Assembly (NCBI GenBank): GCA_964016885.1
Contig: OZ024743.1
Coordinates: 264,430,001-264,494,000 of the forward strand
DNA length: 64,000 bases
Direction: 5' to 3'
From: Eledone cirrhosa
Lineage: Eukaryota
The stretch's first letter is position 1, and each line of letters opens with the position of its first letter. The position numbers and the translations under genes are program-made. The notes beneath the pieces are model-generated. The model did not search any database and was not told the origin of the DNA. It saw nothing but the letters and a program-made list of their open reading frames with translations. Positions 4,564-59,207 of the stretch are shown one piece after another.

Positions 4564-4629
4564 TATTTCATTATATATATTTCAGGGATATCATATTAAC
4601 AATATGTTATGCCTTCTTCAGACAAAATA
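4564..4629 (-). ncRNA. Type I hammerhead ribozyme
   Basis: Minus strand: tattttgt-CTGAAGA-agg...catatt gtt aatatg...cct-GAAA-tatata-TA-atgaaata; 8-bp stem I including 2 GU pairs. Confidence 0.7.
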
Positions 4630-4711
4630 CAATATAGACAGTTTTATAGATAAATAGATTTGAAATACCGTTCAACATCGACTTGTATTTGATATATATA
4701 TTTATTTAAAA

Positions 4712-5927
4712 ATAAATGGAATAGAATGAAACGAAATTTCATTTCTCCCTCTTAGTACGGCGCTTACTTAAATGTAAGTATGTATGCATGTATACGTACA
4801 TACATATATGTATATATATATATATATGTAAATAAACAACCACCCCGAATTACGCCGTACAGTGTTTAGGCAACCATCGTCACCTTTTTGTTCAACACTG
4901 ACACAGGAATGATGTACTAGTTTCTAGCTTATTAGCTATCGCCAGCATCGTATACCTTCCTGCCAGATGGTTGAACGTCTGAAAGTATATACTTTCCTTA
5001 TGCATATTAACGGCTGAGCAGCCTAATTTGCATATCGAGTGAGTTCTGCCGGCCACACCGAAAACGATAAATGGAATAGAATAAAACGAAATTTCATTTC
5101 TCAATCTTAGTCTGGCACTTACTTAAACGTAAATATGTATGCATGTATACGTACATACATATATGTATACAGACCTATAGTAGTATGTATATATATATAT
5201 ACATACATGCACACATATATATATGCACGTATCGGTTTACCGAACATTTATTATAATGCTCGGTTTGTTTGTTTGTAAACAAAAAAACAGACCTAATTAC
5301 GCCGTACAGTGTTTAGGCAACCACGTCACCTTTTCGTTCAACACTGACACAGGAACGATGTACTAGTTTCAAGCTTGTTAGCTATCGTCATCATCGTATA
5401 CCTTCCTGCCAGATGGTTGAACGTCTGAAAGTATATCATTTCCTCATGCATATTAACGGCTGAGGAGCCTAATTTGCATATCCAGTGATTTCAGTCGGCC
5501 GGGCACACCGAAAACGACAAATGGAATAGAATGAAACGAAATTTCGGTGTGCCTGGCCGACTGAACTCACTCGATATGCAAATTAGGCTGCTCAGCCGTT
5601 AATATGCATAAGGAAAGTATATACTTTCAGACGTTCAACCATCTTGCAGGAAGGTATACGATGCTGACGATAGCTAATAAGCTTGAAACTAGTACATCGT
5701 TCCTGTGTCAGTGTTGAACAAAAAGGTGACGATGGTTGCCTAAATACTGTATGACGTAATTCGGGCTGTTTGTTTGTTTACAACGAAACAAACCGAGCAT
5801 TATAATAAATGTTCGGTAAACTGATACGTGCATATATATATGTGTGCATGTATGTATATATATACATACTACTGTATGTCTGTATACATATATGTATGTA
5901 CGTATACATGCATACATACTTACATTT
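4712..5927. mobile_element. HHR-bearing non-coding tandem/foldback element (retrozyme-like family A, ~445-bp unit), locus 1
   Basis: Two minus-sense units (HHRs at 4911-4949 and 5355-5397, 446 bp apart), inversion at about 5543, then a plus-sense unit ending in (TA)n; no ORF. Confidence 0.85.
5658..5700 (+). ncRNA. Intact-core type I hammerhead ribozyme (family A)
   Basis: acgatg-CTGACGA-t agct aata agct t-GAAA-ctag-TA^catcgt; predicted cleavage after 5694. Confidence 0.85.
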
Positions 5928-5974
5928 ATATATATATATATATATAATCATTATATATATATAACATGGGGTGG

Positions 5975-6160
5975 GGTGGATTGGTAGTATCAGTAGAGGG
6001 TCGGATGCCATGCTTTCCAGCATAGTTACGTCCCTTTATGATCTGAGTTCAAATCCCGCCGAGGTTGACTTTGCCTTTCATCCTTACGGGGTCGATAAAA
6101 TAAAGTAGCAGTAATGCACTGGGTAATTGCTGGCCTTGTGCCTAAAGTAGAAACAATTAT
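5975..6160 (+). mobile_element. tRNA-derived SINE
   Basis: B-box GAGTTCAAATCCC followed by core CTTTGCCTTTCATCCTTACGGGGTCGATAAAATAAAGT; further copies or fragments at about 13430, 14736, 15300, 32290, 48405 and 55103. Confidence 0.8.
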
Positions 6161-6391
6161 ATATATATATATAAGATATGGCAACATGAATGACCCTGTT
6201 ACTTTTCTGTAAAATCTCTTTACAGTGTGTGTGTGTGTGTGTGTGTGTGTGTGTGAGTGTGTGAGTGTGTGTGTATGTGTGTGTGTGTGTGTTTCCGCTG
6301 GAATCTTTTAATCACTATATATATAATTATATATATATATATATATATATATATATATATATATATATATATATATATATATATATATATA

Positions 6392-56162: not shown

Positions 56163-56312
56163 CCTAATAAATTCCTTTATAAAAGCACTTTCATTTTATA
56201 TTCATCTTTTCTATATATATATATATATATGTATGTATGTATTTATGTATTATGTATATATATATACATAAATAAATATACACGGGTGTGTAAGATTGTG
56301 CTTAGAAGATTA

Positions 56313-58526
56313 TATTAATAAAAGGAATTCCAACTCTGTCTGATTTACTCGTTTTATTTACAACCAGTTTTGTTTAATGGAGTGATGGGTGTAGGTTATT
56401 CAGGAGGATATTGAACTCATCCAGAGTATCTAGAGATTCTGTCCAGATGATGAAACTGTCGTCAAGCTATATTTTCCAAGACTTTTCAATGTACTTTCTA
56501 AATTCAATGCTATATACTTCCTCTATTTCTTGGTAGAATTGTTGTTCTAATTATCCCATTACAGAGCTCGACTAAACGGGAGCGAACTTCGTTCCCATCT
56601 CTGTGCCTCTAATTTGGATGTAATTCTTTCCATTGAAGAAGAATGTTAGACTGCGTCTAATATAAATGGCACTGTGAATCTGGTGGGAATCACTTCTCTA
56701 TGTTTTTCCACCCAGTATTTAACCACCTTTATTCCTAAATCCTGTGTAATTTTGGTGTAAAGGCTTACCACATCAAAACTAAGTAGAAGTGAATTCGTTT
56801 CCGTGGTTTTGGGAAGATGGGACAGGAAGTCGATATCATCCCGGATGAAACTGGGATGTGAATACATAGTGGTTTCTTAGACGGTGGGTATGGCATGTTA
56901 GACCAGCTATAATATGTCTATTTTTTAAGTCATTTTGGGTGTACTAATTTAATGTACTCCTGAATAACCTACACCCATCTCTCGATTATACAAAACAGGT
57001 TGTAAATAAAACGAGTAAATCAAACAAAGTTGGAATTCCTTTTATTAATATACACCCATCTCTCCATTTTACAAAAGAGATGAGAAGTATCAAATTACCA
57101 GTCCTAGATATAATGGCAATCAAAAACGAAACTACCATTACCATGGACATATACTATAAACACACAGACACCCATAGATATCTGAATTTTATGTCGTGCC
57201 ATCCACCTCATACAAAACGCAGAATCCAATACTGCCTAGCCAGAAGAATTTGTACCATTGTAGAAGATACGAATACCAGGAACAAACGCCTAAAAGAACT
57301 GAGAGAATTTTTGCTCAAACAAAAATACCCATCTCTACTTATAGAAAATGGCATACAGCGGGCTATAAACATACATATGCAACAACTTAGGACAACCCAA
57401 GGGAGAAGAAACCAAGAACTTGTCATACCATTTATAATGACACACAACCCATGTCACCAGAATATCTTCAACACTGCCAAAGCAAACCTACCGACCATTG
57501 CTCAAAGTAAGGAGTTAAAAGGTTTAATCACAGACCGAGCTTTGATTCTTAGTAAAAGACAGCCGAAAAATTTGAAGCAATTACTAGCAAAGGTAAAGTT
57601 TGACCTTAACAATCATTCACTGTATCTAAATCCAATGATAGTCGATGTGGCACATGTCAGTTCATAGATACTGGACTGGTCAATACTGCACAAACAGAAA
57701 TCTAATTTGCTGCATTAATTGTGAAGAACTATATGTCGGTCAAACTGGAAATGCACTATCGGAACGTGCACGGGTGCACCGACAGCAAATCAGAGACCAA
57801 ATGTCCGGCAGATGCCCCTGAGTAACCATCTAGCAACATGTGGTCAGAAAATATTTTTAATATTTCCATTCTACAAACTACACAGCCCAAGTGAAATCAA
57901 GAGAAAAATTAAAGAAAATAATTTATTGATAAATTCCAACCCAAGCTAAATGAACAATAATAATGCTTAGGGGTCTTACTTCTACTATGACTATGCCTAC
58001 GACCATGTCGACTACCACCACTAACAACAACACCAACAATAATAATATTAATAATAAAAGTGATGTTGATGTTGATGATTACTGAAGATTTTTTATAAAA
58101 CCCCTAGAAAATGCAATTTTCATCATTTCTAAATATAGCAAAACAATTGATGATTTGGACAGGGCCAAATAGAAGTCGTTAGACATGTTCAACCAACCGT
58201 GACGCCTAAACCAATCAGCTTTAGTAATCTAGTGAAACCACACACCAATTGGTCGAAATACAGTTTGCGAAACTTAGCATTCTGTAGCCCCTTTTTACTG
58301 TATATAAGGCACAGTTTTTAGCCATCTCATTACAGTTGAAAATTGCCAACTTGACTGTCACCACTGAATATGAACCTGAATATTGCGAAAAGCATGAAAG
58401 TACTTGTTCAATTAACAGTTAACATTTAATATTCCACCATAATATTTCATTATAATATCATTATAATGTTAAATGATTGTAAATAAAACTAGTAAATCAG
58501 ACAAAGTTAGAATTCCTTCTATTAAT
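56313..58526. mobile_element. Neptune-like PLE with inverted RT segment (same family as 32385)
   Basis: Minus-strand RT 56380-56950 (FDVVSLYT, MGTKFAP, LDD-like) continues on the plus strand from about 57051 (VLDI..DIYYKHTD..RRICTIV, LYVGQT); HHR remnant tgaac-CTGAATA..GAAA-gtac-TT-gttca at 58371-58410. Confidence 0.88.
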
Positions 58527-58609
58527 ATATATATATATATATATATATATATATATATATATATATATATATATATCCGACTATCGCCAGGGATTTTAGC
58601 AGATAATTG

Positions 58610-58686
58610 ACTCCCTGATGAAGAAAGGAATTGTCCATGGTATGAACACTATGTATATCCCCTTTCAGAAACTAATTAGTTGGAGT
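58610..58686 (+). ncRNA. Intact type I HHR (family C, copy 1)
   Basis: actcc-CTGATGA-a gaaagg..cctttc a-GAAA-ctaattag-TT^ggagt. Confidence 0.85.
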
Positions 58687-59129
58687 GAAACTTAAGTAAG
58701 TAAGTTAATTATTATAATTTTCTTATTTTACGTGTTTCATATAATTGTTCTACATTTTTGTATTGAACCACAAAGTTACTAAGACAAAACCTATATCTTG
58801 CTAGCATAAGTATACTTCTGTATAAATATTTTGGTAGATATACTAATTCTTTATAATTATCTCCAACTTATTTGTTGTGCAAAAATGTGCCTGAATACTG
58901 CTATTATTCATAGTAATGTTTTGGCTACTGTCTTTTTCACACCCCACTCCTCACTCATTAATCTCGATATCACGTGATTGATTCTTTTGAATTTGCCATT
59001 GACCGGGAAGGTAGTGAAATTTTCAGTGACTTGAAATTTAGTCCGCGCTTGCTTCTTTTCCATTCACTGAATTATTTTTGTTTGAGATCCCTGTGCCCGC
59101 CTATCGCCAGGGATCTTAGCAGAGATTGG

Positions 59130-59207
59130 ACTCCCTGATGAAGAAAGGAATTATCGATGGTTTTGAACACTATCTATATCCCCTTTCAGAAACTAATTAG
59201 TTGGAGT
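59130..59207 (+). ncRNA. Intact type I HHR (family C, copy 2)
   Basis: Same core and stems as copy 1; differences are confined to the distal part of stem-loop II. Confidence 0.85.

Follow-up and report, generated by a model that had tools for sequence, protein, structure and literature searches.

Do the many hammerhead ribozymes that lie close together in an octopus genome recognise their own kind through the sequence of stem III? As a case study, we considered a 64,000-nucleotide stretch of Eledone cirrhosa DNA (positions 264,430,001 to 264,494,000 of contig OZ024743.1, assembly GCA_964016885.1; hereafter the window, whose own coordinates are used throughout), for which a first-pass annotation had listed twelve hammerhead sites with a short insert between the GAAA box and the UH cleavage site. 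It noted that these inserts are all self-complementary and all different, and proposed that palindrome identity restricts activation to partners of the same family, so that only tandem-copy transcripts would be processed and co-resident families would stay insulated from each other. The sighting was correct, the list was incomplete, and the inference is disfavoured by the tests described below. We consider it likely that the motifs are dimer-type hammerheads from the pseudo-long terminal repeats (pLTRs) of Penelope-like elements (PLEs), that their inserts became diverse by drift and that the avoidance of heterodimers is a by-product; a dedicated family code is not supported. Numbers such as 15.1, 16.1 and H17 follow the cited papers, and motifs are named by a position within or beside them (Table 1).

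The window was scanned, blind to palindromy, for the core CUGANGA (or its U3-A8 variant), GAAA and UH together with stems I and II, using thresholds that were chosen after inspection of the data and tuned over several rounds. This gave 34 matches, 20 of them with an intact core, compared with 0.07 intact-core matches per shuffle over 30 shuffles. A perfect palindrome was present in 13 of the 20 and in none of the 30 shuffles, the background being a palindrome of at least 4 nt followed by UH after 61 of the 954 GAAA sites of the window. The palindromy of stem III is real and far above chance, and the motifs are type I hammerheads of the PLE type, with core, stems I and II and a short stem/loop III. 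The 20 matches form 11 families, six having perfect palindromes, two having G-U wobble palindromes (22552/23284 and 61277) and three imperfect ones (D, 8298 and 22150). None of these five non-perfect families was on the first-pass list; all of its twelve inserts are present and self-complementary, but the box of 4176 reads GATA, one full copy of the 45401 family (41939) has a broken palindrome, and the statement that every insert is self-complementary reflects the choice of sites. Ten of the twelve are credible type I hammerheads, while 18680 has no 5' half (the 400 nt upstream of it and of its copy at 20447 contain neither an intact core nor a stem II arm that matches) and 38732 is weak, with a relative at 46961 that is not palindromic. 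Hammerhead 4176 is probably dead; directly 5' of it lies a degenerate G-rich tandem repeat (3149-4152, units of about 73-139 nt).

With the five missed families, 15 were accepted. Two of these, 35965 and 36120, fall below the scan thresholds and were accepted on an intact core and a position behind a PLE open reading frame (ORF), the former because of its stem I pairing and the latter because of its double-hammerhead cofold. Five one-mismatch matches (23632+, 24234-, 24719-, 25204- and 25689-) were set aside as echoes of the family B hairpin on the antisense strand and four others (10644-, 12894+, 23068- and 44236-) as chance; GAAA-palindrome-UH sites lacking a core (35907, the 5617 type, 9864, 21630, 33133, 42970 and 61695) were discarded. 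No hammerhead family appeared among the best 150 of 203 matches in an Rfam scan of the window, all of these 150 being sub-threshold and consisting of 149 microsatellite-driven microRNA-type matches and one match to a viral untranslated region.

The setting of the motifs is octopus-like animal DNA of 35% G+C, rich in microsatellites and repeat debris and holding many PLE remains, and every PLE ORF found in it is broken. Hammerheads 8298, 33644/58371, 35965, D and 41939/45401 lie downstream of PLE ORFs, and 36120 follows 35965 at a distance of 154 nt, so that linkage to PLEs extends to six families; the distance from the ORF end to the hammerhead is 210 nt (family D), 530 nt or 873 nt where measured. 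Three ORFs (6395-7768, 34215-35750 and 42812-44834) are mutually related, with about 37-67% identity over pieces of the reverse transcriptase (RT), and appear to belong to the Hydra clade of PLEs, judging from DKT (at 44834), the CxCX5C linker (ORFs at 7232 and 42812) and a C-terminal endonuclease without CCHH, the ORF at 34215 being assigned by similarity. DKT, the CxCX5C linker, a C-terminal endonuclease and a downstream hammerhead are described for that clade (Craig et al. 2021, PMC8557442, section 11); the window remnants share its marks, but all are broken. The element at 42812-44834 has a layout of direct and inverted pLTRs, its 3' pLTR holding at 41939 a full copy of the 45401 family. 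Its upstream pLTR (45322-45392, minus) retains only the 3' half of the hammerhead (45356, minus), which could still act as the strand to be cleaved if it dimerised with the complete copy at 41939. Of 54 database candidates, one proved to be related to the GIY-YIG remnant of family D; this is a protein of Octopus bimaculoides with 58% identity.

Families A, B and C consist of tandemly repeated non-coding units, each containing a single type I hammerhead, which is the layout of non-LTR retrozymes. Metazoan retrozymes of this kind (PMC7229834) are likewise AT-rich, non-coding and tandemly repeated, every unit having one type I hammerhead; their units measure 150-450 bp, whereas those of the window are longer (A, tandem or inverted, about 430-450 nt; B, 485 nt; C, 520 nt). 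The family B array would be either retrozyme-like or a tandem pLTR. About 45 nt upstream of the hammerhead, family A units carry an additional perfect palindrome of 16 nt (5613-5628) with no core attached.

The design of these motifs is a known one in a new host. A dimer model with palindromic 15.2-16.2 and loop 3, the U3-A8 core and many families per genome was described for PLEs by Cervera & De la Pena (2014, PMC4209133), and the dimer action of minimal PLE hammerheads through a palindromic stem III, which the first-pass annotation had taken as established, is indeed published (PMC4209133; PMC6765202), low activity in vitro being reported for such dimers (PMC4209133). The window motifs share with the minimal or short-helix-III hammerheads of PLE pLTRs (PMC4209133; Lunse et al., as reviewed in PMC6765202 and PMC6466107) the type I form, the CUGANGA/GAAA/UH core and its U3-A8 variant, the palindromic 15.2-16.2 and loop 3, the many families per genome, the place behind the PLE ORF and the dimer-type fold. 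They differ from them in the length of the inserts, mostly 4-11 nt and not 2 nt, in stem II regions of up to 85-95 nt and in their density, with about 15 families in 64 kb. In families A, C and 33644 the first stem II pair is a U-U or A-A mismatch and not the usual G-C.

According to the model that we propose, the motifs would be type I hammerheads of the 3' pLTRs of many unrelated PLE families, together with the non-coding tandem derivatives A, B and C, and would mostly be dead copies. Stem III would be too short to fold by itself, and therefore two copies within one tandem transcript would pair head to tail, the self-complementary insert and A15.1/U16.1 making up one long helix III. The A15.1 of one copy would pair with the U16.1 of the other, and therefore stem I would also be exchanged: at each junction, one copy would contribute core and stem II while its partner provided the UH site and the 3' arm of stem I. 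Both cuts would then be made and a unit-length RNA freed. Dimer cleavage is taken here from the published work, and we infer that it also operates in this animal. Selection would demand only self-pairing, for which a symmetric tandem mismatch would serve as well as a palindrome, with or without G-U pairs, and families would therefore drift to different inserts.

Computed folding is partly consistent with this model. Unconstrained cofolding gave a double hammerhead with swapped stem I for five of 14 motifs (C, 26653, 61277, 36120 and the 33644 family), and for each of the 14 the dimer was favoured in energy over a pair of monomers, often in folds other than hammerheads. In two-unit transcripts the probability of an inter-copy helix III was about 0.4 for family B and 0.13 for family C. 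It is improbable, in our judgement, that many of the motifs with long inserts act instead as monomers or in both ways, the palindrome being an ordinary stem III of 3-4 bp with a short loop and the palindromy partly hairpin symmetry. Hammerhead 61277 folds as a complete monomer as well as a dimer, which weakens the claim that only tandem-copy transcripts are processed; most canonical hammerheads of invertebrate retrozymes cleave as monomers (PMC7229834, PMC7761336), and inserts of 8-11 nt have room for 3-4 bp and a 4-nt loop. Six of the 11 intact-core families nevertheless have self-complementary loop centres, a feature not required by a monomer; with inserts of 2-6 nt, a 4-nt loop leaves room for no more than 2 bp; and the greater stability of the dimer in the 14 cofolds, even if often in non-hammerhead form, also speaks against monomers.

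The proposed code rests first on the diversity of the inserts. The twelve listed ones do all differ, yet twelve random palindromes of these lengths would all differ with a probability of 0.63-0.64 (0.37-0.38 if the first base is fixed). Pairing energies were calculated with a rough nearest-neighbour method and an arbitrary cut-off of -2 kcal/mol, which 17 of the 66 heterologous pairs of the listed set reach; the mean strength of cross-pairing in the real set was equalled by none of 1000 random sets of the same insert lengths, and sets matched for the first base were similar to it. Among 16 motifs, the homodimer was better than the best heterodimer in total energy in every case, and in 15 cases each when helix III or stem I was taken alone. 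The cut-off was reached by 29 of 120 heterologous pairs for helix III and by eight of 120 for both swapped stems I. The palindrome would thus not be the main determinant of specificity, as stem I is predicted to be swapped too and separates the families as well by itself. Of the first-pass proposal, insulation itself is probable, although it would be a by-product of divergence: heterodimers would be disfavoured because stems I and III have diverged and because copies of one family are tethered in cis. We infer that no selection for insulation has acted.

Family D, a high-copy family whose insert in the window reads GGAC, TAAC or GAAC, was compared with the contigs of four sequencing runs, three of which gave cover (4079, 189 and 18 contigs) and represent three organisms, while the fourth (X8) yielded no aligned contigs, a result that carries no weight either way; runs with small word shares were left out, contigs drop rare variants, and depth does not equal copy number. 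Weighted by depth, the second base of the insert was A in 61%, 95% and 76% of cases and otherwise G, with no T at a 4% threshold. The insert is G(A/G)AC in all three organisms, and therefore palindromy is not kept. Variants were also found in loop II, H17, the last base of stem I and 16.2 (the latter in a single contig of one run and two trace-depth contigs of another), and none was listed in the core or stem II in any run, including the largest with its 4079 contigs. By calculation a GA centre gives a fair symmetric helix (-5.7) and an AA centre a poor one (-1.6). About 50 nt downstream of the family D hammerhead, near 41440, there is an additional AT-rich palindrome with no core attached. 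Run X4, from a second organism, contains a very abundant element which has the core and stem II of family D and diverges directly after GAAA (window 41354-41384), possibly a sister family with an altered stem III.

Compensatory change within families would be expected of a maintained palindrome, and on this the families give a mixed picture: D is not palindromic, the palindrome is unchanged across the copies of A and B, and the 45401 family has one broken copy; double change occurs only between related Hydra-clade families. Elsewhere, families often share one palindrome: by our count from the extracted text of Fig. S3 of PMC4209133, leaving out two D. virilis rows that belong to one element, eight of 11 multi-family genomes have two families with an identical insert, and two Aedes families have both their 8-nt insert and their stem I in common. 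With distinctness at chance level, no surplus of orthogonality and a stem I that makes the palindrome redundant, we regard as unlikely a selected dimerisation code in which diversifying selection on the palindromes prevents cross-pairing and cross-cleavage, in the manner of the retroviral dimer-initiation palindrome. What such a code has in its favour, besides the difference of all twelve listed inserts, is the length of the inserts in general (4-11 nt; their helix III reaches -18 kcal/mol, which would suffice for trans pairing) and the precedent of the HIV-1 dimer-initiation site, where a palindrome of 6 nt steers the choice of RNA partner (PMC3187697). The likeness lies in a short palindrome whose identity affects RNA pairing; the HIV-1 site differs in being non-catalytic and in acting in trans during packaging and recombination.

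Several results weigh against the reading of drift and by-product insulation. Nine of the 14 cofolds gave partial or other folds and not the full double hammerhead, and the helix III probability was 0.06 or less in two family A tandems. A code would equally lead one to expect the success of the homodimer in all 16 computed cases. The inserts of three related Hydra-clade elements follow the pattern CA-NN-TG and differ in the centre (CAATTG, CACGTG and CATTTG), a double change between related families that likewise favours a code. The usual insert of 2 nt is found in only one of the 15 accepted families, against 41 of 56 (our count) in the published alignment, whose members had been collected with a minimal-motif search, and the check beyond the window covers one family, D.

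A reading of the motifs as neutral fossils that play no role today, with cleavage incidental even in active elements, seems to us very improbable. All PLE ORFs of the window are broken and several cores are damaged, PLE hammerheads cleave poorly in vitro (PMC4209133), and Naiad PLEs spread without hammerheads (PMC8557442), all of which would agree with it; against it stand the lack of listed core or stem II variants of family D among 4079 contigs and the B array, 99% homogeneous with its motifs intact. For most single copies the fossil explanation is compatible with the preferred reading of dimer hammerheads with drifting inserts. It is equally doubtful as the selected code that octopus PLE hammerheads lengthened helix III to 4-11 nt for pairing in trans, stems I and III forming a self/non-self address that would choose which RNAs are processed together, so that A, B and C would be paired, cut or carried only by the matching autonomous family and the address of D would be a symmetric purine mismatch.

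The presence of several palindromes per genome has been published before. Repeat-type dimeric hammerheads of Aedes, Schistosoma, Nematostella and Xenopus (Perreault et al. 2011, PMC3088659, Fig. S8) also have differing stem/loop III palindromes, including CGCG and GGCC variants within one species, which are interpreted as dimer pairing; the account of these dimers given with that figure differs in having no family-code reading. Our literature search found no paper on octopus hammerheads and none that proposes a code by family for those of PLEs; the papers of Lunse et al. (2017) and Arkhipova et al. (2017), which may bear on novelty, lay outside its reach. What PLE hammerheads do in vivo is still treated as an open question (PMC7761336, PMC8557442). 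A partner-recognition code, if true, would account for the coexistence of many families and for the way in which non-autonomous repeats reach their helper. What is useful apart from it is a panel of about 15 natural dimer hammerheads, largely orthogonal by calculation, which includes a high-copy family with a mismatched centre and two different hammerheads 154 nt apart on the same strand. The latter two (35964-36160) belong to different families, are separated by a short TA run and were computed to be incompatible.

Table 1. Hammerhead motifs and PLE coding remnants of the window
Feature	Positions	Strand	Details
Minimal hammerhead 4176, insert CG	4179..4218	+	GAAA box changed to GATA (position 14)
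Type I hammerhead, insert TATATA	4566..4627	-	
Family A hammerhead, insert CTAG	5658..5700	+	More cores 4945-, 5391-, 37162-, 37594-, 38061+; degraded about 37742+
PLE RT and endonuclease ORF, broken, putative Hydra clade	6395..7768	+	530 nt 5' of hammerhead 8298
Hammerhead 8298, imperfect insert CATTTG	8292..8407	+	85-nt stem II region
GAAA-CGATCG-UA (18680), hammerhead status unconfirmed	18683..18688	-	Second copy 20442-20447
Hammerhead 22150, 11-nt insert	22026..22156	-	10-nt palindrome and one bulged base
Hammerhead 23284, wobble palindrome CGGCTG	23278..23328	+	U3-A8-type core; inverted copy (22552) 22508-22558 minus
Family B tandem array	23915..26145	+	485-nt units, 4.6 copies, 99% alike
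Family B hammerheads, insert CTGATCAG	cores 24181, 24666, 25151, 25636		Inverted copy, core 23685 minus
Type I hammerhead 26653, insert CCATGG	26652..26731	+	
PLE RT/GIY-YIG remnant, broken	32590..33100	+	Ahead of hammerhead 33644
Hammerhead 33644, insert GTAC	33642..33682	+	Behind PLE remnant; second copy (58371) 58370-58411
PLE ORF, broken, Hydra-clade-like	34215..35750	+	Upstream of hammerhead 35965
Hammerhead 35965, insert CAATTG	35964..36005	+	Weak stem II, long stem I
Hammerhead 36120, insert CGTACG	36118..36160	+	U3-A8 core
Doubtful hammerhead 38732, insert CCGG	38725..38766	-	U3-A8 core, weak stems
PLE C-terminal GIY-YIG endonuclease remnant, family D	40693..41145	+	Pfam PF01541
Family D hammerhead, non-palindromic insert GGAC	41349..41395	+	Insert at 41384-41387; copies 40540-40585 minus (core damaged), core 48757 minus, core 50277 plus
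Hammerhead 41939, broken palindrome CACATG	41823..41945	-	3' pLTR of PLE 42812-44834
PLE ORF, broken, putative Hydra clade	42812..44834	-	DKT motif, CxCX5C linker
Hammerhead 45401, insert CACGTG	45400..45522	+	Inverted pLTR copy; 92-nt stem II region
PLE ORF, broken	50884..53259	-	
PLE ORF, broken	56948..57750	+	Ahead of second copy of 33644
Family C, two hammerheads 520 nt apart, insert CTAATTAG	58609..59208	+	Cores 58615, 59135
Hammerhead 61277, 10-nt wobble palindrome	61271..61319	+	U3-A8 core

Other observations concern the surroundings of these features. The PLE at 50884-53259 has an end repeat in three copies (50500-50880, 53316-53598 and 54121-54500) with a decayed hammerhead-like site, the same core change being present in all three and stem III being unparsable. 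An open frame at 3-1391 on the minus strand has an apurinic-endonuclease domain (PF03372) and belongs to an element of the long interspersed (LINE) type; a Pfam match to Bunya_G2 was below the cut-off and was discounted. The motif GCGCATGCGC occurs only twice in the window (35913 and 41255), about 55-100 nt 5' of hammerheads at two unrelated PLE ends, and resembles what we take to be an NRF1-type promoter site.

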